UHGV virus genome: UHGV-0125821
DNA from: a virus
Length of the DNA: 64,000 nt
Direction: 5' to 3' (one strand)
How positions within the stretch are numbered: position 1 is the first letter of the stretch; every line of letters starts with the position of its first letter. The notes under the pieces were generated by a model. The model worked only from the letters and a program-made list of their open reading frames with translations. It did no database searches and was not told the DNA's origin. The position numbers and the translations under genes were made by a program. This document shows positions 1,829 to 59,909 of this stretch, piece after piece.

Positions 1829-2615
1829 TGCAGCGATTATTTTTGGTTCTTTATGTCTGACCGGATGCGACCGGGTAGAACCAGGCAATGTAGGGATCAA
1901 AGTAAATAAGCTGGGGGATGATAAAGGTGTCGGCGAAGTAGTTGGCGTTGGTCGCTACTGGACAGGCTGGAACACAGAAGTTTATATCTTCCCGACCTTT
2001 AAGCAAATGAAGACCTATGATGATCCGTTCAGCTTCCAAATGAGCGACGGGACAACAATTGGTTACCACATTGGTGTAGCTTACAAGGTTGATCCGGCAA
2101 AAGTCACAACTGTATTTCAGACCTACCGCAAAGGCGTGGATGACATTACCGACACTGACCTGCGCCAGAAGATCGCCGATGCACTCAACCGACTGGCCAG
2201 CAAAATGACCACCGATAAGTTTATCGACGGTGGTAAGTCTGAACTGCTGGATTCAGCACTTAAAGATATTCAGGAAGAGATGACCCCCATCGGCATTCAG
2301 GTCATGAGCCTCTCTTATGTCGGTAAACCGGAATATCCGCCAACCGTTATCGACAGCATTAATGCAAAAGTCACGGCGAACCAGAAAACTCTGCAACGCG
2401 AAGCAGAAGCCAACATGCTGCGCGCAGAAGCTGCCGGACAGGCCGATGCCATTCGCACAAAAGCCCAGGCTGAAGCTGATGCCATTCGTTTACGCGGTGA
2501 GGCTCTGCGCCAGAACCCCGGCGTTATGGAGTTGGAAGCGATCAACAAATGGAACGGAACGCTACCGCAGTATATGACCAGTAATACCGCTGTTCCGTTT
2601 GTTCCGGTGAAATAA
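1809..2615 (+). CDS. SPFH/band-7 (prohibitin-like) lipoprotein
   Basis: lipobox LTGC after N-terminal signal; SPFH-type core and Ala/Glu-rich coiled-coil tail. Confidence 0.8.
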   Translation: MKKTLISAAIIFGSLCLTGCDRVEPGNVGIKVNKLGDDKGVGEVVGVGRYWTGWNTEVYIFPTFKQMKTYDDPFSFQMSDGTTIGYHIGVAYKVDPAKVTTVFQTYRKGVDDITDTDLRQKIADALNRLASKMTTDKFIDGGKSELLDSALKDIQEEMTPIGIQVMSLSYVGKPEYPPTVIDSINAKVTANQKTLQREAEANMLRAEAAGQADAIRTKAQAEADAIRLRGEALRQNPGVMELEAINKWNGTLPQYMTSNTAVPFVPVK

Positions 2616-2628
2616 CCAAATAGATAAC

Positions 2629-2760
2629 ATGATGGAATTTTGGACGTTTGCCGACAAGAACCCTTGGTGGACATTTTTATTTCTGCTGGTGGTTGCATAT
2701 GGGGTCGAGCAAGCAGCAAAAGCCTTACGCGGTCCTGGCAAAAAGCGTAAGCGGAATTAA
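2629..2760 (+). CDS. 43-aa membrane peptide with basic C-terminus
   Basis: MMEFWTFADKNPWWTFLFLLVVAYGV...KKRKRN; below track size cut-off, no clear SD. Confidence 0.3.
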   Translation: MMEFWTFADKNPWWTFLFLLVVAYGVEQAAKALRGPGKKRKRN

Positions 2761-2769
2761 CAGTAATCT

Positions 2770-2845
2770 GGCCCTTTAGCTCAGTGGTTAGAGCAGGCGA
2801 CTCATAATCGCACGGTCACCGGTTCAAATCCGGTAGGGGCCACCA
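2770..2845 (+). tRNA. tRNA with CAT anticodon, ileX-like (Ile2 lysidine type) or Met
   Basis: acceptor GGCCCTT/AGGGGCC, anticodon loop CTCATAA, T-loop TTCAAAT, CCA; resembles enterobacterial ileX from memory. Confidence 0.8.
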
Positions 2846-3300
2846 TATTTGGTTGTAACACGGCGTCTGGCACATGCGTCGTTAGCGGTCTGGTGACGTT
2901 AAAAGGGGTATCTTTGACTCTTGCTTAGGCAAACGGACCAGGTAGCCGGAATGTGCAAGCCCCGGTAACAGTGGCGGACCGAGGACTCACCATCCTGGCG
3001 ATTCGGTGTGACAGCCGGAAGAGCACGGCGCACAACAGGAAAAGGCGTTTAATTAGCGTGAGCGCCGTTTCCGTTGTGGTAATTGCGGCTATGCGCTCGT
3101 GACGAAGCCATTTTCATTCACTACGTTCTGATAAGTGACGTCGCCAGGAGTGGCTAACCTGGCAGGTGGAGGCACCACCGCCACAACTCCTTTCAATTCA
3201 TCATATAGCCGCTCAGGCTGTACCCCTTAATTAATACGAAGTTACGACATCACTACCGGTACTTCCGGGGGATAGTCGCGCGTGTAAAAAAGGAGACGTT

Positions 3301-3876
3301 ATGTTAATGGCGAACGATAACGCATATGCAGAAGAAGATCTCATTTTGAGTGACTTCATAGGGAAGCGTGAACGCTGGACCCAAAAGCGAGAGGAACTTT
3401 ACGCCTCATTAGTTCGCAAAGGCGTCAATATCGAAACCGCACAGAGCGGCGATATGACAGTGGTAAGCGTTGGATTGCACGGTGTAAGCGTGTCAGCAAT
3501 CAATCATGAGCCATACGTTGCGTTATCCGAGTCAATGGTAAGGTTAGTTAAGTTCCTGAAGTACACAGAAGCGAATAATGTAATCATTGGCAAAAAGAAT
3601 ATCCCTTTTTCCTCGGCTTTTTACTGGATGATGAAAGGGCTTGATGCCCGGCGGACATCATGGCCTAAAGGGAGCTATATATCGATGTTCCGTGGCAGCA
3701 TTGGCAGCAAAGAAAAGCTCTTCGAATTCTTGCCGGAAGAGGCATTCGATATTGTGGAAGGGTGCGATGTGATGGTGATGCCTCGCCTGGTAATGATGAA
3801 TGGTGATTTACAGGCGCAGACAGACTGGTTTGCAACTGGTGTGGATATTATCGCGACTGACTGGGAGGCTTTCTGA
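3301..3876 (+). CDS. hypothetical protein with Trp-rich C-terminal domain (DUF2829-like)
   Basis: SD AAGGAG before ATG; C-terminus W..G..RR..W ... D(I/L)(I/L)A.DW shared with ORF 11524..12186. Confidence 0.65.
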   Translation: MLMANDNAYAEEDLILSDFIGKRERWTQKREELYASLVRKGVNIETAQSGDMTVVSVGLHGVSVSAINHEPYVALSESMVRLVKFLKYTEANNVIIGKKNIPFSSAFYWMMKGLDARRTSWPKGSYISMFRGSIGSKEKLFEFLPEEAFDIVEGCDVMVMPRLVMMNGDLQAQTDWFATGVDIIATDWEAF

Positions 3877-4268
3877 TGTACGGGACTACCAAATTAAGCA
3901 CTCAACAGGCCACCAATATGGAGTGGTCTATCGCTAACTGTAAGATCGTGTCATGCAATGCCACGCGTACTGATGTGGGCCATAAAAGCACTATAACAGG
4001 CTATCTAGTAATGACCACCAGGGGGATGAGGGTTAGCTTTCGCTGGAAAGCAGAGCAAGTAACGCCATTCAGAGAGCCATCAATGCCGCTGCAGGTTGAG
4101 CAGGATTATCTATGTTTACCAGAAATAGATGGCGGAATGCTGGTGGAGTCTGATGGTAGTAAGGCTGATTTTGAAGCCAATTTGAAGCTGGCACAGGCCG
4201 TAATCAATAGTTATCGCGGAAAGTGGATCGCAAAAGTGAAACATGTTGTTCGTTTGTCTCGCTGGTAG
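3876..4268 (+). CDS. hypothetical protein
   Basis: ATG overlaps upstream stop (TGATG); no family recognised. Confidence 0.55.
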   Translation: MYGTTKLSTQQATNMEWSIANCKIVSCNATRTDVGHKSTITGYLVMTTRGMRVSFRWKAEQVTPFREPSMPLQVEQDYLCLPEIDGGMLVESDGSKADFEANLKLAQAVINSYRGKWIAKVKHVVRLSRW

Positions 4269-4376
4269 CGTTAGGTATTTAATATTAATTTTCTAATACA
4301 ATCATCTTTTTACCAGTCTATACAGTTTTAACATTCTCATTATCATCCCCTCGGTCATTTCCTGCCCGGGGGATTA

Positions 4377-4769
4377 ATGGAACAAATCAGCAGCGCAGAA
4401 ATTGCGGATATCATGATCAGGGCTGACTGCTATCTGACAGTCACTGAAATTACCACTCTCGCCAAAGAAAAATACCCTCATCTCCATGTTTCACGAGTAA
4501 GTGTAACTAACATCATTCGTCATTTTGTTCGTTCAAGCAGGGCAATCTGTGAGCTTGATGATCGTGTTTACCCACGAAAATACTGGTTGCATGGCCTGAA
4601 CGGATATCAGTTCAAGGTGCGTGGGCGAACCCCTGAATATGGCAGTTTACTGGTTAAAAACTGTAGCAGGAAATCAGTCGAACAGGCGCGAAAAGAGCAA
4701 CGAGAGCTGGTGGACATGGCGAATAAGCTGTGGAATGCCGCCGTTATAAAGCGTGGTGTTGCTTTATGA
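4377..4769 (+). CDS. hypothetical protein, Lpa-like by position upstream of terminase
   Basis: position only; stop overlaps pacA-like start (ATGA). Confidence 0.5.
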   Translation: MEQISSAEIADIMIRADCYLTVTEITTLAKEKYPHLHVSRVSVTNIIRHFVRSSRAICELDDRVYPRKYWLHGLNGYQFKVRGRTPEYGSLLVKNCSRKSVEQARKEQRELVDMANKLWNAAVIKRGVAL

Positions 4770-6130
4770 GTCTGGTTAATTGGGAGGAGCACCGCGCCCG
4801 CTTTATAGCGTTGCGTGAAGAAAAAGGGATCACTGTAAAGGAATACTGTGAGGAGCATGGCCTTAGCTTCAATACAGCCAGAAAGCATCTCAATATGAAA
4901 AAAAATGAGGTGCGGTCGCAGGTAAAGACAACAAAAAAAAGCACCAAATCACCTGAAAAAAAACGGGCGGGAAGAGCAACAAAAAAGCTGGAAGAGGGTG
5001 TAGAAAAAACAAAATTTACAGAAATTGACAATTCGCAGGGCGCAGGTTCTTTCCGAAGTATGCCGAGAAAGAAAACTTCGGATCATGAAAATAATTCAAA
5101 TAATAACAATAAGATAAAAGAATCTGTCAGGAGATCATTGCGCGAAAAAATGGCGAAAATGATCCCCGAAGAAGATAAAAACGCCCCAAAAATTGAGGGA
5201 TCTTCTGCAATGATCCATGACGGTGCTGTGCAGCGAGCCACATTGCCAACTACGAATGTGGCTCGCGATATGATGAAGAACGGCGCAGAAGAACACCTGC
5301 GGTTAGCAATTCAAATGGCGCAAGAGCGCGCACTTCAGTATCAAAGCATTGTTGATCAGGAGGCCGAACGTCTACAGGCGGAAATAGACGCCTTGGGCGA
5401 TAAAGAGCCAGAAGGAATGCACCCTGGGCAGCGCCTTCTCGGTCTAATCAGTGACGCGGCCTACTACATGAATGATTTTATCAGTAGGTTGGCAGCTATA
5501 TATCAGTCCGAACAAAAGCTGCGACAGGGGGATGAAAAGCTTCGTCAGAGCGCTCGCCAGCAAGCATTCAAAGAGGCTGAGGCCAGAGAAAAACTCGAAT
5601 TAGCACGCCTACAGGCCGAACAGCGTGGCAAAGAGATTGAATATCGCATTGGCGCTGACGCACGCGCAGCCAGAGTTATCGCCGCCGCTATACGTATGCG
5701 TGAGCGCGAGGAACTGGATGATATCGGTGTTGCTGAATACATCGAGCGCCAGGGTGTCAGCGTCCCGGCTATCCTCGCGGCGCGCGCGGCGAAAGCTATC
5801 ACTCTTCTCGAACCACCTGTTTCTGACGTCAATGATGTTGATGATGAACAGCTGGACAAAGAGGCAAGGGAGTTTGCAACGCTTCAGGCTAACCATCCGC
5901 AATGGCTGGCAGAGCGCCGGGCGGATGTGGCAACCATTGTTGAAGAATTGGGGTGCGGAGATTACGACCGCAATGGCGAGCGTAAAGCTGGAGAATTCGA
6001 GGCCAACGACGAAGAGCTGGATATTGACCCTTCGGCAACGGCTGAAATTTACGGTGATTATGATGCATCTGATGCAGGGTATGACGCCGGAGATGATGAT
6101 ATCGCGATAGAACCGCCGGAGGATGATTAA
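4766..6130 (+). CDS. pacA: terminase small subunit (PacA-like)
   Basis: precedes and is translationally coupled to large terminase; N-terminal HTH-like region, acidic C-terminus; start moved to ATG 4766. Confidence 0.65.
   Translation: MSLVNWEEHRARFIALREEKGITVKEYCEEHGLSFNTARKHLNMKKNEVRSQVKTTKKSTKSPEKKRAGRATKKLEEGVEKTKFTEIDNSQGAGSFRSMPRKKTSDHENNSNNNNKIKESVRRSLREKMAKMIPEEDKNAPKIEGSSAMIHDGAVQRATLPTTNVARDMMKNGAEEHLRLAIQMAQERALQYQSIVDQEAERLQAEIDALGDKEPEGMHPGQRLLGLISDAAYYMNDFISRLAAIYQSEQKLRQGDEKLRQSARQQAFKEAEAREKLELARLQAEQRGKEIEYRIGADARAARVIAAAIRMREREELDDIGVAEYIERQGVSVPAILAARAAKAITLLEPPVSDVNDVDDEQLDKEAREFATLQANHPQWLAERRADVATIVEELGCGDYDRNGERKAGEFEANDEELDIDPSATAEIYGDYDASDAGYDAGDDDIAIEPPEDD
5080..5217. 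other. candidate pac site: five GATC-containing hexamers in 136 bp
   Basis: GATC at 5081, 5134, 5162, 5200, 5213 inside 5-prime part of pacA-like gene. Confidence 0.4.
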
Positions 6131-7638
6131 TGGCTGGCGGGCGCAAGATTAAATGCGTCACCAGAGATCCACGCTGGCGCGATATGGTAATCAAATACCG
6201 CTACAACTTTACCCAGGCTGTTGTCGATATTTTTGGGATGTTCCCCTCCCAGCAGCAGCAGCAGATCATTCAGTCCGTACAGGAAACGGGGAGTAGGACT
6301 ACCGTCACGTCCGGACACGGAACGGGGAAGTCGTCCCTTACCGCGATGTTGCTGTTGATTTTTATGATCCTGTTCCCCGATGCCCGTGTCATCATTGTTG
6401 CTAACAAGATAGGCCAGGTAAAAACAGGCGTATTCAAATACGTTAAACAGTATTGGGCGAATGCAGTTAAGCGTCATGGGTGGTTGCAGACCTATTTTGT
6501 CCTCTCTGACACCATGTTTTATGAGCGCTCCCGTAAGGGGATTTGGGAAGTTCTCTGCAAAGGTTATCGACTCGGCAACGAAGAAGCGCTGGCGGGGGAA
6601 CACGCGGCACATTTGCTTCTAATTCTGGATGAAGCATCTGGTATATCTGATAAGGCGATCGGCGTAATGACCGGTGCTCTTACTGAAGAAGATAACCGGA
6701 TGTTGATGCTATCCCAGCCAACAAGGCCAAGTGGTTATTTCTACGATTCGCACCATTCTCGAGCAAAAACCCCAGACAACCCGAAAGGGATCTGGACAGC
6801 AATTGTTCTTAACTCGGAAGAATCACCGTTCGTCACACCACAATTCATCAAGGAGAAGCTTCTGGAATATGGCGGGCGCGATTCTATTGAGTACATGGTC
6901 AAGGTGCTTGGTCAGTTCCCACGAGAAATTAACGGCTATTTGCTTGGTCGTGATGAATGCGATCGCGCTGCTCGCCGCAAGGTGTTGTTGGAGAAAAACT
7001 GGGGATGGGTGGCAACGGCTGACGTTGGTAATGGGCGAGATAAGTCGGTCCTCAACATCTGCAAGGTATCAGGTCACAGGGATAAGCGGCGCGTTGTTAA
7101 CTTTAAGGTAATGGAGATGCCTGGCACTATGGACCCATTGGCCTTTGCTGACTTCATATATAACGAATGTACGCCGGAAAAATACCCGAATATAACAATC
7201 GCGGTTGATGCTGATGGTTTTGGTTCTGATACGTGTGCGCAGTTGGTGCGTCGTGGTGCGAACCCGGTACGTATTCGGTGGGGAAAACCCATGTTTGCGA
7301 ACAAAGACAGGGAGCGATTTGTTAATCAGCGTGCCTACGCAAATATTATGGCGCGTGATGCCATAAAGTCAGGGCGTATGCGGATAGACAGTGACCCTAA
7401 AACGGCAGAGCAAGCGTCAAAAATCCCCTTTTTACTGAATGAAGAAGGGAAAATGGCGATGATGCGCAAAGAGCACATGCGGCAAAAGCTAAACATCAAA
7501 TCGCCTGACCGATGGGATACCTACTGCTTCACTATGCTGGTGGACTATGTGCCTGCTAATGAAGATATTGGTGCCGAAATGGCAACTTTCCGAGATCAGG
7601 TTCTGGCGGATATCGAAATGCCGGATCTGGATATATAA
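6130..7638 (+). CDS. pacB: terminase large subunit (PacB-like)
   Basis: Walker A GHGTGKS, Walker B-like LLILDEA, nuclease-like C-terminal half. Confidence 0.75.
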   Translation: MAGGRKIKCVTRDPRWRDMVIKYRYNFTQAVVDIFGMFPSQQQQQIIQSVQETGSRTTVTSGHGTGKSSLTAMLLLIFMILFPDARVIIVANKIGQVKTGVFKYVKQYWANAVKRHGWLQTYFVLSDTMFYERSRKGIWEVLCKGYRLGNEEALAGEHAAHLLLILDEASGISDKAIGVMTGALTEEDNRMLMLSQPTRPSGYFYDSHHSRAKTPDNPKGIWTAIVLNSEESPFVTPQFIKEKLLEYGGRDSIEYMVKVLGQFPREINGYLLGRDECDRAARRKVLLEKNWGWVATADVGNGRDKSVLNICKVSGHRDKRRVVNFKVMEMPGTMDPLAFADFIYNECTPEKYPNITIAVDADGFGSDTCAQLVRRGANPVRIRWGKPMFANKDRERFVNQRAYANIMARDAIKSGRMRIDSDPKTAEQASKIPFLLNEEGKMAMMRKEHMRQKLNIKSPDRWDTYCFTMLVDYVPANEDIGAEMATFRDQVLADIEMPDLDI

Positions 7639-7665
7639 AGCCCCGCGATGCGGGGCCGGTTGTGA

Positions 7666-8703
7666 TTACCAGAGCTTCGCGGCGTACTGCGTTTGGGGGA
7701 ATGTGTATCCGTAACGTTCTTCGATTGCTTTGCCGTATTTTTTACGAGCTTCATTCAGTTTAATGCCGGTCAGGTCGTCTCCAGAGGCCATCATTACGTC
7801 TAACAATTCCAGATCCATTTTATCCAGCCTTGCCATTGCTTCACGTGATGTACGTATCTTACGCTCAATGATATGGCGAATAGCCGGATCGGCATCCTCC
7901 AGCATCTTAGCGGATTTCTGCTTAAGGCTTTCATTGCGAATATCGATGTTCCTTAAGATGTACGACTTCGCAACGTAGCTTGGCTGGTGTTTTTCCAGGT
8001 CACGAACACGATATAAGTTAAAATCGCCGAGAAGGCTGCAAGGTACCGATTCGACGCCAGAATAAATTGTAATGCTCCGGCGTTCACCAACATTATTGAC
8101 AACGGGGATCGTTGTCTTCGGTAGTCTTGCGAAAACCAATGCACCATGTGCGCCAACTCTAAAGCGAGAAAGGGCATTGCTGCCTTCGATGTTTGTTGTC
8201 AGCACAACATCTGTATATGCCTCTTTACGCGCCCGGTAGATCTCGCCTTCAGGCTCAGCTTCAAAGAAGCGCTGTTCTTCTTCAAGATCGCCTACGATTT
8301 GAGAAAAAACCCTATTTTTCAGGCTTTTCTTTATGATTTTGTCGTATTTTTTTAGCAATTGTTCACGTGTAAATGTACGTGTTGTTGTAGCGCTTTGCAC
8401 AACGACATGCGTGCTTTGATTGGTGTCCTCAATGATGAATGGGATCGGAGAATATACAGACTCAACAATGTTCGACGCTTTGCCGTCGGCATCGCGGCAC
8501 ATGTCAACGAAGGCTTTCCATTCAGCAAGACATTTTTCAGCTTCTTCTAATATGTTTTGGTCATGCGTTAATGCAACATGGCGGAATTCCTCGCCAGCAT
8601 AACTGGTATCATGGAAAACAGAGTTTGCGACCACCAGCTCTTTCCACCGTTCAGCGGTTTGCAGGAACCGTTTGTACTCTTTCTCGATCGACTTCTTACT
8701 CAT
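7666..8703 (-). CDS. hypothetical 345-aa protein at the position of the P1 c1 repressor
   Basis: antisense between pacB-like and rox/dre; operator-like motif 20 bp upstream of its start; function not established. Confidence 0.6.
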   Translation of the reverse strand: MSKKSIEKEYKRFLQTAERWKELVVANSVFHDTSYAGEEFRHVALTHDQNILEEAEKCLAEWKAFVDMCRDADGKASNIVESVYSPIPFIIEDTNQSTHVVVQSATTTRTFTREQLLKKYDKIIKKSLKNRVFSQIVGDLEEEQRFFEAEPEGEIYRARKEAYTDVVLTTNIEGSNALSRFRVGAHGALVFARLPKTTIPVVNNVGERRSITIYSGVESVPCSLLGDFNLYRVRDLEKHQPSYVAKSYILRNIDIRNESLKQKSAKMLEDADPAIRHIIERKIRTSREAMARLDKMDLELLDVMMASGDDLTGIKLNEARKKYGKAIEERYGYTFPQTQYAAKLW

Positions 8704-8718
8704 TATTCCTACTCGATT

Positions 8719-8738
8719 TAGTTTTCTAACATAAAATT
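8719..8738. promoter_or_regulatory. operator-like motif copy
   Basis: TTATGTTAGAAAACTAAATC on minus strand. Confidence 0.45.
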
Positions 8739-8914
8739 ACTATGACAAATTTATGTCGAATAACAGAGTGAGTAAAGGATCGAACTGTGATTTTTTGTCA
8801 TCAATTTTAGAAAACCAACCGTAGAAACCACACTTCGCAAATTAAAGACCATGAAGGCAACGTGTTACTGGTCATCATCAATCTATGATGGGTTAAAAAA
8901 AAATCGGCATTTTA

Positions 8915-8946
8915 TAACTTTAAATAATTGGCATTATTTAAAGTTA
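8915..8946. other. rox-like recombination site
   Basis: TAACTTTAAATAATTGGCATTATTTAAAGTTA; reverse complement equals the rox sequence as I recall it. Confidence 0.85.
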
Positions 8947-8955
8947 GGCTATAAT
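8928..8955 (+). promoter_or_regulatory. sigma70-like promoter overlapping rox
   Basis: -35 TTGGCA (8928-8933), 16-bp spacer, -10 TATAAT (8950-8955), pointing toward dre. Confidence 0.45.
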
Positions 8956-9098
8956 CATGTGTAGATGAACAGTATTGACATCACTGAAAATACGTACCTC
9001 GAATCAAAGGCTTGTATTTTGAAAATTAACTTATAGCTACCCTGTCATTTTTATATTTTTCGCGTAGCATCATCTGTATATAGAGGTGAAATAGTTTC

Positions 9099-10127
9099 AT
9101 GAGTGAATTGATTATCTCTGGCAGTTCCGGTGGTTTTCTGCGCAACATTGGCAAAGAGTACCAGGAAGCCGCAGAAAACTTTATGCGGTTCATGAATGAC
9201 CAGGGGGCTTATGCGCCGAATACTCTGCGCGACCTCCGGTTGGTGTTTCATTCCTGGGCGCGCTGGTGTCACGCTCGCCAGCTTGCCTGGTTTCCGATCT
9301 CACCAGAAATGGCCCGCGAGTATTTTCTTCAGTTGCATGATGCCGATCTGGCTTCGACCACCATTGATAAGCACTACGCCATGCTTAACATGCTGCTTTC
9401 TCATTGTGGCCTTCCGCCACTTTCGGATGATAAAAGTGTTTCTCTGGCTATGCGGCGTATCCGGCGCGAAGCGGCAACGGAAAAAGGCGAACGAACAGGC
9501 CAGGCTATACCGCTGCGATGGGACGACCTGAAACTGCTCGACGTCCTGTTGTCCAGGTCAGAACGGCTGGTGGACCTGCGCAACCGGGCTTTTCTCTTTG
9601 TTGCATACAATACGCTGATGCGTATGTCGGAAATCTCGCGTATTCGTGTAGGAGATCTGGACCAAACAGGTGACACCGTCACGCTACATATTTCACACAC
9701 GAAGACAATAACGACCGCCGCCGGGCTTGATAAGGTGCTTTCCCGTCGCACTACTGCTGTGCTGAATGACTGGCTGGATGTTTCCGGGCTTCGTGAACAT
9801 CCTGACGCGGTGCTGTTCCCGCCGATACACCGTAGCAATAAGGCCAGGATTACGACAACGCCCCTTACTGCACCTGCAATGGAGAAAATATTCAGCGACG
9901 CCTGGGTGTTGCTGAATAAAAGGGATGCCGCGCCAAACAAAGGGAGATACCGGACGTGGACCGGGCATAGTGCTCGTGTCGGGGCCGCTATCGATATGGC
10001 TGAAAAGCAGGTGTCTATGGTGGAGATCATGCAGGAAGGAACCTGGAAGAAACCGGAAACACTTATGCGGTATCTGCGCCGTGGCGGTGTGTCTGTGGGG
10101 GCTAATAGCCGCTTGATGGATTCGTAG
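9099..10127 (+). CDS. dre: Cre-family tyrosine recombinase (Dre-like)
   Basis: blocks shared with Cre from memory: SWARWC, WFP, AYNTLMRMSEISRIRV, WTGHSARVGAAIDMA. Confidence 0.9.
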   Translation: MSELIISGSSGGFLRNIGKEYQEAAENFMRFMNDQGAYAPNTLRDLRLVFHSWARWCHARQLAWFPISPEMAREYFLQLHDADLASTTIDKHYAMLNMLLSHCGLPPLSDDKSVSLAMRRIRREAATEKGERTGQAIPLRWDDLKLLDVLLSRSERLVDLRNRAFLFVAYNTLMRMSEISRIRVGDLDQTGDTVTLHISHTKTITTAAGLDKVLSRRTTAVLNDWLDVSGLREHPDAVLFPPIHRSNKARITTTPLTAPAMEKIFSDAWVLLNKRDAAPNKGRYRTWTGHSARVGAAIDMAEKQVSMVEIMQEGTWKKPETLMRYLRRGGVSVGANSRLMDS

Positions 10128-23766: not shown

Positions 23767-24073
23767 ACACTCTCCTTTCGAAATAAACGTACTGATTAAT
23801 CATGCCCAGGGGCATTTCGAGTTTTTCCGCGATCTCACGGCGGGGAACACCACACTGATGAAGCTGCCGTGCCAGTTCTATATCGCTCTGCCGGTATTTG
23901 GCTGACGGATGAAAGTCTCCTTTCAGAATCATGCTGATCCCCAACTCCCGCGCTTTAGTCCTGACGGCATCACCGGTACGACCGATCAGCTTCCCAATAC
24001 TCTCGACCGTCATAGTTCCGGCGCACTGGCGGAGTATCATGATTTCTGCCCTTCCCCATCCCCGCCAGCTCAC
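23756..24073 (-). CDS. hypothetical protein, possible HTH
   Basis: two HTH-like segments. Confidence 0.45.
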   Translation of the reverse strand: MSWRGWGRAEIMILRQCAGTMTVESIGKLIGRTGDAVRTKARELGISMILKGDFHPSAKYRQSDIELARQLHQCGVPRREIAEKLEMPLGMINQYVYFERRVYEV

Positions 24074-24708
24074 GCAGAACTCCTTCTAACCAAAAGAACG
24101 CCATCTTCAGAAACAACGTTGCAGGACTTCAGGTAATTCATTGCCTCTTTCGGTAATGGATTCTTTGGATCGGCGTTTGCCAGGGATTTCGATAACCTCA
24201 TGATAAATTTGATCATTACCTTCTGGCGGAGCTTGTGCTCATGAGATAAAGAAAGGTAATAGGAAATGGTATGGGCTAAACGCTCACGAAGCTGTTCTGT
24301 GCCGTGATATACAGCAGCGATATCACGCAGTGCATTGACCAGTTCCCGGTAAATATGTGGAGCAACCTGGCATTCAATGTTGGTTGGTGACTCATAAATT
24401 ACAGTCAGCCCCAGCTTTTCAGCCAGCGCGTGCTCTGCACGAGCACCAACCGATTCTTCCCATTGATTGAGCAAATAGATCGCATCAGCAGAACGCACCA
24501 TTGCCAGGCAAATATCCATGTATTCACTCTGGCAAAGGCCACCAGGTAACACCGCTGGATTCAGAACGATATGCCCTTCAGCCATCAGCTCGCTCGCTTT
24601 CGCATTAAACGCCGCACGGTTGTAATCTGGATAACCAGTCATCGGCCCCGCGATGTAAATTTTCAAAACACGTTTCACCATCAAAATTTCCCCAAAATCG
24701 TGACGCAA
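24070..24708 (-). CDS. DUF4406-like (deoxyribosyltransferase-fold) protein with C-terminal extension
   Basis: KIYIAGPMTGYPDYNRAAF...HIVLNP; true start may be the internal Met. Confidence 0.55.
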   Translation of the reverse strand: MRHDFGEILMVKRVLKIYIAGPMTGYPDYNRAAFNAKASELMAEGHIVLNPAVLPGGLCQSEYMDICLAMVRSADAIYLLNQWEESVGARAEHALAEKLGLTVIYESPTNIECQVAPHIYRELVNALRDIAAVYHGTEQLRERLAHTISYYLSLSHEHKLRQKVMIKFIMRLSKSLANADPKNPLPKEAMNYLKSCNVVSEDGVLLVRRSSA

Positions 24709-24872
24709 AACATAAGCACTGCGAAAAGCTCAATACCAAGCTCAAGTAGCGCCAACGCCCCGAAAAACAACACATAGAACAGGCCAATCTCATTCACAGA
24801 TGGCTGGTGGATCGCACTTAAAGCTATAAGCATCATGTCCTCCAAACAGTTATCAGGAATGATATTAATGTT

Positions 24873-24906
24873 TTGTGTTAGAAAATCAATTTTGAATATC
24901 TAACTG
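24873..24906. promoter_or_regulatory. operator-like motif with partial inverted half-site
   Basis: TGTGTTAGAAAATCAA ... TATCTAACTG in divergent promoter region. Confidence 0.45.
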
Positions 24907-24953
24907 TTTTGATCAATCATAGAAAAATAGCTGAAAAGTAAGAGGCAGCCATC

Positions 24954-25532
24954 ATGCAGAAACAGAGCTATTGGGAGAAACAGAGACAAAAAGCCATGCA
25001 AAAATTGGCTGACCCAGCCTGGCGAGAGGAACAAAGGGCAAAGCGCCTTCAACAAGCTCAACGCCAGCAGCAACGAGCGAGAGAAAAAGCCGCATCGCCT
25101 GAATATCGGCAAAAGAGAATTGAAAAAGCAAAGCAATATGACCAGCGGAGAAAAGAGAAAACTGTATCCGCTCCGTCCAAAAAAACACGCACGTCACGCG
25201 GCCTGAAGGGCAGATCACTCACAGCCGATGAACGCCGGATACAGACCGCTATCGGTACTCTCCCCTGCATTGCCTGCCATATTCACGGGCAACATAGCCC
25301 AGTGGTATCCCTGCACCATATCTTCGGGAGAACGGCAGAGAACGCGCATAAATATGTCCTCCCTTTGTGTAAATGGCACCACCAGTACGCAGCGCCAGCC
25401 GAGGTCCGAGAACAATATCCCTGGCTGGTCCCTGTTCATGCTGACGGAAAAATAGGCGGAAAAGCAGATTTCATGCGGCACAATGCCGATGAAATGACGT
25501 TATATCAGATGGCGATTGAATTGATAAATTAG
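24954..25532 (+). CDS. ref: HNH-type endonuclease, Ref-like
   Basis: LPCIACHIHG ... LHHIFGRT ... LCKWHHQ His/Cys motifs; similarity to P1 Ref is from memory. Confidence 0.6.
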   Translation: MQKQSYWEKQRQKAMQKLADPAWREEQRAKRLQQAQRQQQRAREKAASPEYRQKRIEKAKQYDQRRKEKTVSAPSKKTRTSRGLKGRSLTADERRIQTAIGTLPCIACHIHGQHSPVVSLHHIFGRTAENAHKYVLPLCKWHHQYAAPAEVREQYPWLVPVHADGKIGGKADFMRHNADEMTLYQMAIELIN

Positions 25533-25548
25533 TTTTCTAACATTTTAA
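25531..25548. promoter_or_regulatory. operator-like motif copy
   Basis: AAATGTTAGAAAACT on minus strand. Confidence 0.45.
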
Positions 25549-25777
25549 GTTGAATTGTAAATTTCTCCGATGTACATTCACTACCGATTGGCACACCGGT
25601 CAACTTTTTGAGACAAACTGTTTAGTTTTTCGTATTATTGCCGCCGCCATACCTATGGCGGTGCAATATAGGTGGCTGAAAAGCCCCCGTTGACTCACGG
25701 TGTTCCAGCCTTTATTGCGCCGCCACCAGACCGTGGAACAGTCGATGGCGGCTCCGAAAGCAAGGAGTCACTACACT

Positions 25778-25867
25778 ATGAACAACTACAGTCTTTTCCC
25801 ATCACTCGTCGTCCACCACTCACGCGATAATCTGCATTCTTTACTCGCGCTGGGGGTGTCAAAATGA
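25778..25867 (+). CDS. 29-aa ORF coupled to next ORF
   Basis: SD AAGGAG 10 nt upstream; stop TGA overlaps next ATG. Confidence 0.3.
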   Translation: MNNYSLFPSLVVHHSRDNLHSLLALGVSK

Positions 25868-26031
25868 CTGTTCGCTACCTCAACTTTCAAATCAAGAACA
25901 TTACTGGCGGTTGCTATGACTGGTTTGTCACTCTCGGAAAAGAAGTGATCACCGGGAAGCTGGATGAAGTGAAAGCTAAAGCAATGGCCTACGCCTGCAA
26001 GCAAGCCCGGAAGAAATCCGCCAAAGCATAA
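25864..26031 (+). CDS. 55-aa hypothetical protein
   Basis: MTVRYLNFQIKNITGGCYDWFV...; followed by terminator. Confidence 0.35.
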   Translation: MTVRYLNFQIKNITGGCYDWFVTLGKEVITGKLDEVKAKAMAYACKQARKKSAKA

Positions 26032-26135
26032 AATACTGACTGTTGCGCCCTGGCATTATCGTGGGGTATATTTCTACGGCACCTTAGAAAAACGGGTGCC
26101 GGGATTGGAACCCCGGATAATGCAAAAGGCGACAC

Positions 26136-26160
26136 AGACGCCGAAAGCGTCTTTTTTTTT
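26136..26160 (+). terminator. intrinsic terminator
   Basis: GACGC cgaaa GCGTC followed by T9. Confidence 0.6.
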
Positions 26161-26345
26161 GTGTCATGCCATCGCACAGCCATACGTAGCGTTTAGCTCA
26201 GAGATCAATGGTAGTGCTGGCTGGGCTGCCGAAAGGCAGGCCGGTTCCCTTTTGCGCCGGTAGTTCCAACCCAGTCAGTGCTACCGCCATTGAGATTGGA
26301 ACCTCACGCGGTAGCTCCTTAAATTAGCAAAAGGAGGCTGCCAAT

Positions 26346-26516
26346 ATGGCTACTATCCCTACCCCAACTCATTCTGAATTTATCTGGCGTTTCTATTCCT
26401 GCCAAAAGCACCTGTATATCTGCGTCATGGCTGCTACCGAATCAGAGGCGCGCTCATACCTTCCCGAAGAACCCTGCATTTTTGCTGCTCGCTTCACTCT
26501 AATTGAAAGGTCTTAA
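26346..26516 (+). CDS. 56-aa hypothetical protein
   Basis: strong SD AGGAGG; MATIPTPTHSEFIWRFYSCQ... Confidence 0.4.
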   Translation: MATIPTPTHSEFIWRFYSCQKHLYICVMAATESEARSYLPEEPCIFAARFTLIERS

Positions 26517-26638
26517 CGATAGTCTGCCACGAATAGTTACTTCCACTGCCTAAAGTTATTTAATTGCATTACAAAGTGTAAATTAGTAACATTAGAATCT
26601 CACACAGCACTATAACTATATGTTTTTTATGTAAAAGG

Positions 26639-26998
26639 ATGATAATCGTGGCTACTAAAATTAAACTTGAAAACCCTCAAACTGGCGAATCAATCACCGG
26701 TTTTTATGGTTTTTCCTGGACTACATTCTTGTTTGGTGCTTTTCCAGCTTTGTTCAGGAAAGACTTTATAACTTTTATTGGGGTATTTGTAGTGATGCTG
26801 ATACTGGCATTCCTCACAGCCGGAATTGGCCCGTGGATTGCCTCATTTATCTGGGCGTTCATGTATAATAAATATTTCACCGTAAATAAGATAAAACAAG
26901 GCTTCATTTTTGCTGGTTCTCACACAGAAAATGAGTTGGCTGCTAGCAAGCTAGGATTGTCATTAAATCAAAACAACTGCAAAACTATTACCGAGTAA
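26639..26998 (+). CDS. membrane protein (2-3 TM helices), AT-rich gene
   Basis: 119 aa; low GC relative to backbone. Confidence 0.6.
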   Translation: MIIVATKIKLENPQTGESITGFYGFSWTTFLFGAFPALFRKDFITFIGVFVVMLILAFLTAGIGPWIASFIWAFMYNKYFTVNKIKQGFIFAGSHTENELAASKLGLSLNQNNCKTITE

Positions 26999-27006
26999 AG
27001 CCAAAA

Positions 27007-27030
27007 AGCAGGCTTAATAGTAAGCCTGCT
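27007..27030. terminator. 10-bp hairpin between convergent genes
   Basis: AGCAGGCTTA atag TAAGCCTGCT. Confidence 0.5.
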
Positions 27031-27037
27031 ATGTCAA

Positions 27038-27871
27038 TCACGAATCTCTCTGACAATTCAGAAACATAAACGCCCGCTTGTCTGTTAAATCCGTAACATA
27101 ATACTCTCTCATGCCTGTAGGTTTTATTCTACGAGCATATACAAACTTATGAACTGGTTGTTTTTCCCCATAACTTACATCAGTCCTAAATTCATCAACC
27201 ACGCTACCATCTTTTTCAGTTTCCTTTCTCACTAGCTGATTTTCTAATACAGGCTTTGATTCGTCCATGCCACTAAAAGCATCCTGACCTGTGCTGTTGC
27301 CTCGGTTTCCGCGTGGCAAATCCCATGAAAAATAAGTGCCATAGTCAGTAATCACACGATCCCATGTTCCGGAATCCCCCATATAGTTAGAACGCTCCCC
27401 CTTGTAAGTTACAGCCACCTTACAGGCATACGTTTCACCATTATTTTTTTTATCATGTCCAGCCATGCTTGCAGGAGTTGCAGGGGAATTATGAATAGAT
27501 GCGCTTACATCATCTTGCGTTAATTCCTCAACTGGAGCAAATTCATATATGGGTGTGCCGAGGCTATTTAAATATAACTTATATCTAACCCTAAGCGCAC
27601 TTCCATCAGAGAATTCATACGTTCCCAGACATTGGAGCTTATTTTTTTCTCTTATCTCATTGATCTGATTATAAGCATCAATTACAGAGATTGCTTCCTG
27701 ATCGTCCTTAAGCAGTTCATTATAATCATCGATTAACATCTGTCTGGTTTTAGGGGCATTACAGTCAATTTTGCTAAAATCATAAGCAAAGGCAAATGTG
27801 GGAACAGAGAGAGCAACAACAGTAGCAAGTATTGTTGAGGAACATCTTTTCCCATTTTTTATAAAAAACAT
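27038..27871 (-). CDS. secreted protein with cleavable signal peptide, AT-rich gene
   Basis: start set at MFFIKNGKR (SD GGAG); signal peptide ending AFA; 4 Cys in mature part. Confidence 0.6.
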   Translation of the reverse strand: MFFIKNGKRCSSTILATVVALSVPTFAFAYDFSKIDCNAPKTRQMLIDDYNELLKDDQEAISVIDAYNQINEIREKNKLQCLGTYEFSDGSALRVRYKLYLNSLGTPIYEFAPVEELTQDDVSASIHNSPATPASMAGHDKKNNGETYACKVAVTYKGERSNYMGDSGTWDRVITDYGTYFSWDLPRGNRGNSTGQDAFSGMDESKPVLENQLVRKETEKDGSVVDEFRTDVSYGEKQPVHKFVYARRIKPTGMREYYVTDLTDKRAFMFLNCQRDS

Positions 27872-28163
27872 TTCATTAACTCCATACTTTACCATCTTAG
27901 CCGCGAGCGCGGTCCCTAAAACCCTTAACTTCACTGCACCGTCCTTCATGCAATCAAAATGACTTTTATGTTATAAAAATAATCAGCAAAATCAACATGA
28001 TTTAGGCCAAATTTCGGTCAAAAATAAAATCCACAAAAAGTGGTTGACACTATTTTGGAAATCACAAACTGCACATAATCCATCGCGCTAACGGCTCCCG
28101 TTGAAGGTTCTTTTGACGATTAACTTTCAGCCGAAGCGCGGTAGGGAGTCATAACGCCAAAGC

Positions 28164-28188
28164 AGGCCGCCATGTGCGGCCTTTTTTT
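28164..28188 (+). terminator. intrinsic terminator immediately upstream of next gene
   Basis: AGGCCGC catgt GCGGCCT followed by T7. Confidence 0.55.
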
Positions 28189-28215
28189 GTATCCGTCATC
28201 CGTGGAGGAAGGACA

Positions 28216-28869
28216 ATGGAAAAGATCGCAATATTCAGCCTGACCACCAGCAAGCCTCAAATGCTCACTGCAATACTGAAAGACGGTGCTCTCATTATTA
28301 ACGAAGTAAAACCCCTCCCCGCGTCAGCATTGGAGCAAAAGCAAAAAATTCCTCCAGCTATAGCAGCCCTGCGGAAAAGCAAATTTAAGGTACTGGTAGA
28401 CGAAATTACGCCAACGATCTCCGCTGGCACCGGAGCAAGCCAGGTGACTCTCAAGACCCGTCATGCCGATGGCAGAGCAGCAATCATCGTCGGGATGGAA
28501 AGATACAGAGAGTTAAAACTCCAGAAGCTATTATCCCTGCCGCAAAATAACAAAGGTGCTTTCGAAATCCCTGACTCCATCGTTGACACCGAATACAACG
28601 GTAACGGAGAAGAAGTCTACCGGGTGAACTGGCAGGATATCAGGCCGGAGCATATTCTGATGATCCTGTGTTGCTACGCAACCGTATACCACAACGTTGC
28701 CAGTGCGGATTACGTAGAGCAGATGATCGGTACAGTCGAGAAAGAGCAAAAAACAGGCATACTCGCTTCGTTCCTGTCCATTATTGGGCATGAAAAAGTT
28801 AAAGCAGGCACCTCCCAGCCAAAGTCACTGACTGGGAAAGAAGTTGATGAAGATACCGTGATACTTTGA
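28216..28869 (+). CDS. hypothetical protein
   Basis: start set at MEKIAIF with SD GGAGGAAGG. Confidence 0.6.
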   Translation: MEKIAIFSLTTSKPQMLTAILKDGALIINEVKPLPASALEQKQKIPPAIAALRKSKFKVLVDEITPTISAGTGASQVTLKTRHADGRAAIIVGMERYRELKLQKLLSLPQNNKGAFEIPDSIVDTEYNGNGEEVYRVNWQDIRPEHILMILCCYATVYHNVASADYVEQMIGTVEKEQKTGILASFLSIIGHEKVKAGTSQPKSLTGKEVDEDTVIL

Positions 28870-29004
28870 TCACATTAGTAGCTTTGTTAACTCCCTCAAT
28901 ACCAGGTAGAAGAGTAACAAAAATATTGACGCGAGTATTTGAGTGGTCAATGAAGCGTTCATAAACAGATCAATTAGCATTAATAATTCGAAGATAACAT
29001 CCAT
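28870..29004 (-). CDS. 44-aa hydrophobic peptide (single TM), type I toxin-like
   Basis: MDVIFELLMLIDLFMNASLTTQILASIFLLLFYLVLRELTKLLM; SD GGAG 9 nt upstream; hand translation, may be off by 1 nt. Confidence 0.35.
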   Translation of the reverse strand: MDVIFELLMLIDLFMNASLTTQILASIFLLLFYLVLRELTKLLM

Positions 29005-29197
29005 GTCATTCACTCCGTTTAATTTTTAATCTAATGCCAGCAAATGAAGCTGGCCCCCGCATAAAGATTAATGAAAGTCACTTGTCACCAGTGAGGGGAT
29101 TTATGAACCACATCCCCCTGAACTGGTGGCCTGTCTGTTTCTCGCATTTCACACCCTGCATACAGTTTCCCCCAGGTTATGACTGAGAGGCTTTGTT

Positions 29198-29527
29198 ATG
29201 GGCTATAGCAGACTCGACGATAGGTACATTGAAGACGATATTTTTCGTGCGCTGTTTCACCAGGAAATGATTAAGCGGGTATCGGAGTATCACTCTGATA
29301 ATTTCCAGTACACGATAAAGATTGATGAAGTATATCGTTCAGATCTTGCAGCCTACCGGGCGTATGGCAATGCAGATTTGCGCTGGGTATTCCGGGTGCT
29401 GGTGGGCCATGAGTCAGAAATGGAAGAAATGCCCGCAGGGACCACGTTAACTCTTCCTGATGTGGCATGGCTGAGGAACAAGATCCGTGATTACGCGAGC
29501 GCGGAACCGGAGATAGAAAATGCCTGA
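29198..29527 (+). CDS. hypothetical protein
   Basis: 109-aa ORF. Confidence 0.55.
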   Translation: MGYSRLDDRYIEDDIFRALFHQEMIKRVSEYHSDNFQYTIKIDEVYRSDLAAYRAYGNADLRWVFRVLVGHESEMEEMPAGTTLTLPDVAWLRNKIRDYASAEPEIENA

Positions 29528-30713
29528 TTTCCTGAAAAACCAGGACGGGCGCTATATCACTGACGGCCTGTCCTCTAAGGACTTCACGCGTTTATTCGAG
29601 CTTATCAGGAAAGAACAAACCCGTAAGCGCCGACAAGCTCACCGGACGCTGACGCCAGGTAGACTGAGGAACAAATCCGCCGAAGATATTCTCAAGTTAG
29701 GGAAGAAAAAAGGCGGCACGTTCTTCACGCGAGACGACCTGAAAGGTTTCGAAAAGCTACGGAGTAAAACGCGCGAAAAATACGACAGCAAGACGGCTGG
29801 CATCACATACGCCCAGCTGGTGGCATCCAGCCAGGCAATCGATATTAAGCGTGCAAATAACGCCGTGGATGACGGATCTGGTATCAAAAGAGCTACACCC
29901 GTATCTCTTCGCCACAATGTGATTAATATCCGCGTAGAAGCATCGGATATATCCGTCCACCAGCACCATATCGTCCGGATACGCTTTGAAGAATGGGATC
30001 AGATGGTTGATGACATCGCAGAAGACGATAAATCAGCTCTCAAAATCACTAAATCACTGTGCGCCGGGCGAGTGTCTTTCGATTGTGACTGTGGTCGTCA
30101 TCAATACTGGTATCGTTACATCGCCACTGCGGGTAACTTTGCCCTGGCACCGCCAAAAGAATACGCCTATCCAAAAGTTCGCAACCCGAAGCTGCAAGGC
30201 GTCGCCTGTAAACACGTGATCCACTCAATGACGCGGTTACAGTCCGCCAGTTGGCAAATGAGTATTGCTCGTGCGCTACAAAAGGCTGCAACGCAAATTG
30301 CATTTGGTGATGATCGCCGCCGTACAACCAAACACTTCTCAAAAGAAGACGAGAAGGAGTTTAATCGCAATCGTAGCAGTAAAACGAACGTTGAAGCCGC
30401 CAAACGCGAATGGAGGCTCTATCAGAAGCGCCAGGCAGCTTTAAGTACAAAACTGGCAAAGGACAACGGCAAGATCGACAAACTACGTGACCAATTGACC
30501 AAGGCCAGAAAGTTGTCAGATGCACAGAAAAAACGGGCGGCAGCAAAAGAAGCGGCCTTGCAACGTGAGAAACAGAAAAACAAGGAGCTTCAGCAACGCC
30601 TTGCCGATCAGTTCGCACTGAAGAAGCAGGCGTTCATTGATGCGCTTGTCATGGCTGGAACACCACCAGCACAAGCTGAAAAAATGTTCATGGAGTATGT
30701 AAAAAAAGCATAA
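29520..30713 (+). CDS. SWIM-type zinc-finger protein with basic coiled-coil C-terminus
   Basis: FDCDCGRHQ ... GVACKHVIH (CxC-Xn-CxH). Confidence 0.65.
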   Translation: MPDFLKNQDGRYITDGLSSKDFTRLFELIRKEQTRKRRQAHRTLTPGRLRNKSAEDILKLGKKKGGTFFTRDDLKGFEKLRSKTREKYDSKTAGITYAQLVASSQAIDIKRANNAVDDGSGIKRATPVSLRHNVINIRVEASDISVHQHHIVRIRFEEWDQMVDDIAEDDKSALKITKSLCAGRVSFDCDCGRHQYWYRYIATAGNFALAPPKEYAYPKVRNPKLQGVACKHVIHSMTRLQSASWQMSIARALQKAATQIAFGDDRRRTTKHFSKEDEKEFNRNRSSKTNVEAAKREWRLYQKRQAALSTKLAKDNGKIDKLRDQLTKARKLSDAQKKRAAAKEAALQREKQKNKELQQRLADQFALKKQAFIDALVMAGTPPAQAEKMFMEYVKKA

Positions 30714-30746
30714 ACCACACATAGCCTAGTAGTTTATGCTGGGCTT

Positions 30747-31475
30747 TCATTTTTTTGAAAGATCAATTCCAGTATTATCAAACAAACTGGAAATATCAGA
30801 CACCAATTTATTAAAATGCTTGTCATCATTATAGAATGATGTGCTTTTTATAGCGACTATAAAATCACATAAATCTTGCGGAGATTCAATGCTAACCCCC
30901 TTATTTTTATATAGTTCAATAATACTGCCAACATCAGTATGCAATAGTTTTATCGCGCCACAAATTTCTCGCTGTTTCGTAACCAAGTCATTAAGTTTAT
31001 TTTCATTTTCATCTAAGATTTGTTTTGAATATTTAGCGTCATTGGTTGCTTGATTTAACTTTGTTTTCTTTCTTTGCAATTCTATTCTTTTATCATAATC
31101 AGCAACTTCATCTAAATATCTTATTTCAGTGTATAATTTACTTGTTAGCTTAGATATCTTCAGTGTGAGAACAGGAGCTAACACAGATGCAAATACTCCA
31201 TAAACAAATGGGATTACAACGTGATAAACCCACGGGGATACAATCCAATTATCAATGAACGGGACATTACCACCAACAGAAACAATAGATAATGTATATA
31301 GGATGTCGTCCTTTGACTTTAATATAATTAAAATATCCTTCCAGTTAAAAATTAGAAAAGAAATGACAACATATGCAAAAACCTTGTTAAATATTTTATC
31401 TTTTATTATTTCAGAAAATGATTTTAGTTCTGTTTCATTTATAGACGGATTATCTTTAACTTTTTCTGACATCAT
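30747..31475 (-). CDS. membrane protein with cytoplasmic coiled-coil domain, very AT-rich gene
   Basis: 2-3 TM helices then Lys/Asn-rich coiled coil; SD AGGA before ATG. Confidence 0.6.
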   Translation of the reverse strand: MMSEKVKDNPSINETELKSFSEIIKDKIFNKVFAYVVISFLIFNWKDILIILKSKDDILYTLSIVSVGGNVPFIDNWIVSPWVYHVVIPFVYGVFASVLAPVLTLKISKLTSKLYTEIRYLDEVADYDKRIELQRKKTKLNQATNDAKYSKQILDENENKLNDLVTKQREICGAIKLLHTDVGSIIELYKNKGVSIESPQDLCDFIVAIKSTSFYNDDKHFNKLVSDISSLFDNTGIDLSKK

Positions 31476-59534: not shown

Positions 59535-59909
59535 ATGCTTTACGAAATAGACGCAAGACTTCAAACGAATGAGAGCGGTGTCATTATTGCAGAAGGAAGT
59601 ACCGCAGCATGGATGGCCCGACTTGACGAGTGGCTACGAACCCCTGAAGGGAGTGTTTATGGTTTACCCTCTTGGGGGAGTCCAATGGAAGAATTTAAGC
59701 ATGAACCATTCGGCTCTGAAACTTCGCACATAGTTGAAGTGGCTATTGAAGGGAGAATGATGAAAAAACTACGACAAGACTTGCCAGGTTTGGATGTGCA
59801 GGGGATTCGTTGCACATCAATTTCTGAAGATTCTTTATTAATTAGTTTTTATGCGAAAGGTGGGAGCATGGATATTGTTATGCAGAAATCAAGTGGGGTG
59901 GGCGCGTGA
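59535..59909 (+). CDS. baseplate wedge protein (gpW/gp25-like)
   Basis: 124 aa, position before gpJ-like gene. Confidence 0.55.
   Translation: MLYEIDARLQTNESGVIIAEGSTAAWMARLDEWLRTPEGSVYGLPSWGSPMEEFKHEPFGSETSHIVEVAIEGRMMKKLRQDLPGLDVQGIRCTSISEDSLLISFYAKGGSMDIVMQKSSGVGA

Follow-up and report, generated by a model that had tools for sequence, protein, structure and literature searches.

The segment from position 26,136 to 28,215 of the viral genome UHGV-0125821, analysed here within a stretch of 64,000 nucleotides (the window), had been described from its sequence as one coherent AT-rich islet of accessory cargo, with three proteins that could not be placed in any known family. Our main result is a correction of that picture. 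The mysterious islet resolves into three unrelated parts: the remnant of an immI immunity operon from which the anti-repressor is missing, a gene for a small membrane protein that occurs widely, and a swappable gene for a secreted protein related to the superimmunity locus (sim) of phage P1. All three open reading frames (ORFs) have named or catalogued relatives, and the first of them belongs to the immI operon. Judged by sequence similarity, the window is a D6-like phage-plasmid, and 26.1-28.2 kb is the right-hand end of one of its immI regions, followed by a variable cassette site. We are confident of this structural description. By analogy with P1, the best reading of the region is a sim-like, envelope-acting accessory cassette, probably serving superinfection exclusion. 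Structure and exclusion taken together, we find this explanation somewhat likely to be right, and superinfection exclusion specifically, as the role of the secreted protein, is proposed tentatively.

Relatives of the window and composition of the region

Escherichia phage D6 matched window positions 26000-28400 with 98.3% identity in megablast, the match being split in two pieces over 3,744 bp of D6. The nearest record was plasmid ptetA of E. coli strain 19-5 (NZ_CP047013.1), with 99.9% identity in one piece. Pairwise comparison with D6 gave two collinear blocks, in which window 24001-26500 corresponded to D6 locus 2002-4499 and window 26500-30000 to D6 locus 5843-9344. The annotated gene order in D6 is ref, orf86, orf85, orf84, icd (orf83), ant (orf82, an anti-repressor of Rha/KilA type), a pmgF-like gene (orf81), orf80, orf79 on the opposite strand, mat, gene 26 and gene 25. 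The region was already in GenBank, as phage D6 orf79, orf80 and orf83. The sequence, the D6 annotation and a published link to simB are public; what this analysis adds is the exact extent of the ant deletion, the fusion with a relic gene, the dissection of the secreted protein into two domains, for which a confident model was obtained, and the view of the site as one where genes for secreted proteins are swapped.

The drop in GC content reported for the region was confirmed, with 0.386 for 26517-28160 vs 0.471 for the whole window, and 1.9% of 1.5-kb windows were equally low. The three ORFs were confirmed: 26346-26516 on the plus strand (56 aa, with AAGGAGG ahead of the start), 26639-26998 on the plus strand (119 aa) and 27038-27949 on the minus strand (303 aa). 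The 56-aa ORF and its strong ribosome-binding site exist as predicted, but it is not a member of the islet, since it is a truncated icd with a normal GC content of 0.468 and lies outside the low-GC block. The terminator scan found 11 terminator-like sites in the region vs 3.2 expected. Two of these had been taken to bracket the islet, which did not hold: the hairpin at 26136-26152 on the plus strand, with its T-run, closes the immI leader, which lies ahead of c4, and that at 28164-28190 on the plus strand (hairpin at 28164-28182, plus a T-run) stands just upstream of the mat ribosome-binding site, outside the cassette. A third hairpin, at 27007-27030 between the convergent genes, is GC-rich with a 10-bp stem, a T-run on the minus strand and an A-run ahead of it on the plus strand, and is probably a bidirectional terminator.

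An immI operon without its anti-repressor

The immI part begins with an isrK-like leader RNA at 26079-26157 on the plus strand (Rfam RF01394, 62.5 bits, gathering score 50), which ends in an intrinsic terminator. The c4-a1b1 model also matched here, at 26066-26119, weakly (22.4 bits, below its gathering score of 46.7) and overlapping the isrK match. The leader is followed by a C4 antisense RNA gene at 26204-26291 on the plus strand, matched over the full length of the model (RF01695, 76.7 bits, gathering score 45). In P1-type immI operons C4 RNA is the translational repressor of icd/ant. The 56-aa ORF at 26346-26516 on the plus strand matched NCBIfam NF033153 (phage_ICD_like, E=9e-14) and PHROG 1426 (E=7e-32); its 52 native codons lead into I-E-R-S and a stop codon. 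Residues 1-52 were identical to Icd of D6, with divergence beginning at the deletion junction, and we identify the ORF on these matches as the truncated icd (icd') of the immI operon.

The junction lies at 26499-26500, where 1,343 bp are missing relative to phage D6. The deletion took icd codons 53-71, all of ant (Rha/KilA-type) and the pmgF-like gene. The junction reads CACTCT followed by AATTGAAAGG, with a single base of microhomology; the deletion is an illegitimate one. When 5,426 complete E. coli genomes were searched with a 161-nt junction probe, one or both probe halves were present in 81, and the junction itself in one of the 81 (ptetA). In PLSDB the junction was present in two plasmids, both from swine. 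An intact icd coupled to a downstream anti-repressor is thus not present here, as icd ends after codon 52 and ant is gone. For D6-like plasmids a second c4-icd-kilA-rha region near repL has been described (PMC6799933, supplementary table); the Rfam scan found no such second immI copy near repL in the window.

Losses of this kind are not limited to the window. The gene table of a D6-like plasmid of Salmonella Concord (NZ_CP028198.1, locus 2646-3214) has no c4 (ash), icd or ant between ref and the pmgF-like gene, which suggests an independent loss of the same immI copy; PLSDB gene tables leave out pseudogenes and RNA genes, and the DNA of this plasmid was not checked in detail. A P7-like plasmid with mcr-1 inserted in ant1 has also been reported (PMC5786510). 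Loss or disruption of ant is a recurring event in this plasmid group. The retained C4 RNA could still repress ant translation in trans, and the loss of ant would remove one route of derepression, tilting the element toward the plasmid state.

Two side observations concern the RNA genes. A weaker C4-like RNA was seen at 25651-25730 (RF01695, 40.2 bits, gathering score 45), between ref and a small ORF at 25864-26031, and may be a paralogous antisense RNA. A 39-aa ORF at 26208-26327 overlies the C4 RNA gene and is called 'ash family protein' in related plasmids by the Prokaryotic Genome Annotation Pipeline (PGAP); this is probably a spurious protein.

In comparison with immI of P1 and P7 (c4, icd, ant1/ant2), the window operon shares the full-length C4 gene, the isrK-like leader and an icd with a strong ribosome-binding site at the expected distance. 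It differs in its icd, cut at codon 52, and in the deletion of ant, and the D6 type as such differs in having an ant of Rha/KilA type and a second immI copy near repL.

The predicted secreted protein and its two domains

The gene that corresponds to D6 orf79 ('simB-like') runs on the minus strand. The original prediction had it as a protein of 303 aa with a signal peptide and four cysteines, convergent to its neighbour. The orientation, the signal-like segment and the cysteines were all found, but the true start is most likely ATG 27871, giving 277 aa at 27038-27871. This placement is based on a GGAG 8 nt ahead of that ATG, on the PHROG 13054 profile, which begins at residue 27 of the 303-aa ORF, and on the PGAP annotation, which also has 277 aa. 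The extra 26 codons (27872-27949, minus strand, MKDGAVKLRVLGTALAAK...) form an in-frame relic, the first codons of a deleted upstream gene for another secreted protein: the same 5' end heads an intact secreted protein of 202-223 aa in plasmid pS143-4 and in plasmids of allele B (described below), and the point of fusion between relic and orf79 is visible in the DNA alignment.

The 277-aa protein was divided into a putative Sec-type signal peptide (residues 1-29, ending in AFA before YD), a SimB domain (residues 30-116), a flexible, low-complexity linker (residues 117-145) and a beta-barrel C-terminal domain (residues 146-277). The n-h-c layout of the signal peptide and the conserved cysteine pairs were recognised from the sequence. 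The mature part holds four cysteines, C37, C81, C150 and C273, forming one conserved pair in each domain (C37/C81 and C150/C273). Residues 8-116 were 46% identical to residues 2-111 of P1 SimB (E=1e-27). In agreement with this, a tblastn search of phage genomes with the 303-aa ORF aligned only residues 47-148, which are the SimB part. The C-terminal domain carries an invariant loop, SWDLPRGNRGNSTGQD.

Full-length relatives of orf79 were almost confined to D6-like plasmids (11-14 clusters), and a profile search of 1.84 billion representative proteins returned only 30 matches. Among these were SimB-like secreted proteins that stand alone (about 105-120 aa), C-terminal domains that likewise stand alone and have a signal peptide of their own, and C-terminal domains joined to other N-terminal domains. 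Nothing informative came from the genomic surroundings of one C-terminal-domain protein of the stand-alone type or of one homologue with another N-terminal region. No match was obtained in Pfam for any of the three proteins of the region, NCBIfam recognised icd only, and the PADLOC models gave no match at E<=0.1 for any of the three.

The structure prediction that had been proposed for this protein was carried out with AlphaFold. With the 30-sequence alignment the mean predicted local distance difference test score (pLDDT) was 80.8, with both domains near 90, replacing an earlier run on 10 sequences with a mean pLDDT of 58.7. Foldseek searches of the PDB with the 10-sequence model gave only matches of E>0.01. 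In the predicted model the SimB domain has a cystatin-like fold, and the C-terminal domain resembles small beta-barrels (Cap15 7.2, nitrobindin 6.5, Brucella PhiA 5.6, PliC 5.2). The best viral fold matches of the protein were uncharacterised phage proteins.

A variable cassette site between immI and mat

The flanking mat-26-25 segment was present at at least 80% coverage in 116 PLSDB plasmids. The block 26520-28160 was complete in only 56 of them, and about 60 others matched only 27892-28160 (query 1373-1641 of the block), next to mat. This short segment is shared by all D6-like plasmids and makes the right-hand boundary of the variable site, upstream of mat. The mat gene itself (maturation control protein, 28216-28869, plus strand; D6 annotation, PHROG 1837 E=8e-95) belongs to the backbone flank. 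The check for presence and absence in related plasmids, suggested together with the original prediction, thus showed that the block is not conserved backbone. The view of the region as laterally acquired accessory cargo stands in so far as it is a variable accessory block; it is one allele of a recurring variable site rather than a one-off acquisition.

At least four arrangements of the site were distinguished in a sample of the 116 plasmids. Allele A, that of the window and D6, has the membrane protein gene and the simB-like gene. Allele A+, from plasmid pS143-4, has in addition an intact upstream gene for a 223-aa secreted protein. Allele B has a longer pmgF-like gene and encodes two unrelated proteins with signal peptides (about 130 and 202 aa), and allele C, without the membrane protein gene, has a 291-aa protein in which another N-terminal domain is joined to the same C-terminal barrel (75% identity). 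Every alternative arrangement encodes signal-peptide proteins. The divergence of orf79 is a mosaic that changes from domain to domain, which indicates intragenic recombination. In a published comparison, D6-like plasmids of Salmonella likewise had a simB homologue, lacked simA and simC, and diverged around simB (PMC6799933). In pS143-4 (NZ_OY757108.1, locus 1978-3514) the simB-like gene is directly preceded, in the same orientation, by the intact gene of the 223-aa Cys-rich secreted protein. This layout looks like an ancestral two-gene operon, from which the window allele would derive by deletion.

The region could be taken for a decaying, functionless remnant whose genes drift as passengers after the ant deletion: icd is truncated, the 5' end of a relic gene is fused to the ORF of the secreted protein, and deletions recur in the region, one Salmonella plasmid having a gene table without c4, icd and ant. 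The ratio of nonsynonymous to synonymous substitution rates (dN/dS) speaks otherwise. For the secreted protein it was 0.14-0.18 overall, 0.08-0.15 in the folded domains and 0.32-0.37 in the linker; for the membrane protein it was 0.08 vs a diverged allele. Because of these values (0.08-0.18), lowest in the folded domains, both orf79 and orf80 are functional and under purifying selection. Both ORFs are moreover intact, the folds predicted for the secreted protein are confident, and the block is 95-100% conserved over the 56 plasmids, which come from E. coli, Salmonella and Shigella. We regard decay as extremely improbable.

The position of the block next to mat raises another possibility, namely that these are accessory genes of the lytic cycle or of morphogenesis, acting with mat and pmgF in lysis timing or in passage through the envelope at release. 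In D6 the cassette does lie between the pmgF-like gene and mat, and AAATGACTT at 27957-27965 matches the -22 box of LPsit, a late promoter of P1. This box lies on the opposite strand and faces mat, and the window shows no enrichment of the motif. Furthermore, about half of the D6-like plasmids lack the cassette or have another in its place, simB of P1 is non-essential, as are simA and simC (PMC10695390), and the signal peptide and conserved cysteine pairs indicate a periplasmic protein, not a virion component or a cytoplasmic assembly factor. A role of this kind therefore appears very unlikely. The pre-mat segment itself (27892-28215) may combine a late promoter with a leader or an attenuator of mat; the fold z-score of the segment was only -1.4.

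Concerning regulation, no match to the P1 C1 operator consensus ATTGCTCTAATAAATTT was found in the window within 3 mismatches, and therefore C1 control could not be inferred.

The small membrane protein

The second gene, D6 orf80, encodes a small inner-membrane protein of the HrgC family. It had been described as a polytopic protein of 119 aa. The ORF and its hydrophobic segments are there (one strong segment at residues 40-58 and two moderate ones), but the protein is probably 116 aa long, starting from GTG 26648 (26648-26998, plus strand) rather than from ATG 26639. This start is the likely one because homologues begin at MATK in the alignment; AAGGA sits 9 nt upstream of it. The ORF was 100% identical to D6 orf80, which is annotated as "similar to p492 of phage 121Q". 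Identity to the HrgC-named protein of Rak2/121Q-type jumbo phages was 54-57% (54% for 121Q gp492), with weaker relatives in Lactobacillus phages. PHROG 4915 matched with E=2.7e-47 over profile positions 2-113 of 114. Among 5.8 billion proteins 183 homologues were found, mainly in Enterobacterales, Burkholderiales and other Proteobacteria, and the family alignment has the invariant motif GFYGFSWTT..FG.FPALFR.DF. The Pfam search gave no match for the protein itself, PF10947 (DUF2628) included; 6 of 31 homologues matched DUF2628 below threshold (best E=0.055), and DUF6693 was likewise sub-threshold. A PDB sequence search with the orf80 profile found no related solved structure. After the deletion, orf80 starts 131 nt downstream of icd' with no terminator between, and it may be read through from the immI transcript.

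In Helicobacter pylori, hrgC replaces the PabI restriction-modification system, and the paper describing this aligns the 121Q protein as 'Escherichia HrgC' (PMC4615327). The window protein resembles HrgC proteins in size, in its hydrophobic core and in its occurrence as a single mobile gene, a likeness to H. pylori HrgC that is drawn via 121Q gp492.

The original prediction had raised the idea of an effector/immunity pair, which would here be a pair of that or of the toxin/antitoxin kind, with an HrgC-like membrane toxin and a secreted partner, or the reverse. The two genes are adjacent and have low GC in common, and HrgC has been speculated to be a membrane toxin resembling type I toxins, a suggestion made in the source paper without experiments (PMC4615327). 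The genes are convergent, though, with a terminator hairpin between them, and each is found without the other: plasmids of allele C carry the barrel protein without the membrane protein, and HrgC-like genes stand alone in chromosomes and jumbo phages with no SimB-like neighbour. In the chromosomes of Cedecea and Duganella, for instance, the orf80 homologue is a lone gene amid unrelated housekeeping genes. One chromosomal SimB-like gene does overlap the gene of a small membrane protein that weakly matches DUF4234, but this type of neighbour is unrelated to the HrgC family (hhalign probability 3%), and PADLOC recognised neither protein of the proposed pair. We consider such a pair very improbable indeed, and the orf80 protein has no demonstrable link to the secreted protein. 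The overlapping chromosomal gene was seen on a contig of GCA_044025435.1 (locus 4484-5318), where the SimB-like gene overlaps the end of a 179-aa gene beside a type VI secretion cluster.

Other features of the window

Two more low-GC blocks (GC 0.35-0.40) were observed at 30000-31300 and 59800-60900, the first being lower in GC than the block studied here. Three tRNA genes at 667-739, 745-817 and 2770-2842 agree with the tRNA region described for D6-like plasmids.

Proposed function

The case for superinfection exclusion runs through SimB. The relation to the P1 superimmunity locus (46% identity) makes exclusion, which the original prediction had already named as a possibility, a reasonable guess, although no SimC is present. 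Sim is thought to block DNA injection by a superinfecting phage (PMC8546580). According to the P1 record, simABC adjoins c4-icd-ant and is divergent from c4. The N-terminal domain of the window protein matches the entire SimB and shares with it both cysteines and the layout of the signal peptide; the two loci are also alike in lying beside the c4-icd-ant immunity operon and in having products that are presumably secreted. They differ in several respects. The window has neither SimA nor SimC, the latter being the protein credited with exclusion; its SimB domain is fused to an unrelated beta-barrel domain; its gene is downstream of immI and convergent with it, whereas the P1 genes are divergent from the c4 promoter; and the D6-type site holds alternative cassettes.

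Four observations weigh against exclusion as the function. Firstly, the P1 record assigns the exclusion phenotype to sim/simC, and gives SimB only a "putative accessory function". Secondly, no homologues of SimC and SimA were found when the 277-aa protein was compared with SimC and the membrane protein with SimA, in agreement with PMC6799933; BLASTP of the 277-aa protein against P1 SimC gave E=0.89, and the C-terminal domain is not SimC-related. The equations of SimC with the C-terminal domain and of SimA with the membrane protein were accordingly rejected. Thirdly, stand-alone SimB-like proteins occur also in ordinary bacterial chromosomes, outside any phage context, and because of this the SimB domain is not specific to exclusion. 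Finally, the promoter scan found no convincing sigma-70 promoter for either cassette gene.

The chromosomal SimB-like genes, together with the invariant loop SWDLPRGNRGNSTGQD in the barrel, would also fit a lysogenic-conversion factor of benefit to the host, that is, a periplasmic inhibitor or binder directed against external lysozymes, proteases or colicin-like agents, or a binder of small ligands. We hold this to be unlikely, as the full-length family is almost confined to D6-like phage-plasmids, the gene lies beside the immunity region as sim does in P1, and the swapping of alleles among near-identical plasmids fits a conflict of phage versus phage better.

If the cassette does serve superinfection exclusion, the SimB-barrel protein would be exported to the periplasm of the plasmid-carrying cell, form disulfide bonds there and interfere between adsorption and DNA entry of related superinfecting phages. 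Candidate targets would be a host envelope factor or a part of the injection apparatus that is exposed to the periplasm, e.g., the lytic transglycosylase of the tail. Speculatively, the inhibitor-type folds and the loop that is invariant in the barrel suggest that such a periplasm-exposed target is bound. The swapping of cassettes would in that case be the trace of an arms race between related phage-plasmids. Periplasmic beta-barrel inhibitors of peptidoglycan hydrolases, of the PliC/MliC and Brucella PhiA types, and inhibitors of cystatin fold are among the nearest known candidates for comparison.

Another is Spackle (Sp) of phage T4, a small, all-helical secreted exclusion protein of the periplasm that inhibits the tail lysozyme gp5. 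The likeness, which concerns the mechanism that we propose as the most plausible, would be in acting in the periplasm against a cell-wall-digesting tip; in sequence and fold Spackle has no relationship to the window protein. A bolder version of the proposal is that the site between immI and mat is a dedicated swap site for periplasmic anti-phage proteins, and that the SimB-barrel protein belongs to a new class of exclusion factors, in which the loop SWDLPRGNRGNSTGQD obstructs the lytic transglycosylase at the tail tip or some other component needed for injection, in related superinfecting phages. This we think quite unlikely. If true, the protein would be functionally like T4 Spackle and structurally unrelated to it, and a role would finally be assigned to the SimB domain.

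P1 has served as a model phage for decades, and a function assigned to the SimB domain and its partner barrel would be a first. For the D6-like elements, the ant deletion may help to explain why some of them behave as stable plasmids, and the swapped, domain-recombining cassettes of secreted proteins mark a locus of conflict in these phage-plasmids, a common family in E. coli, Salmonella and Shigella.

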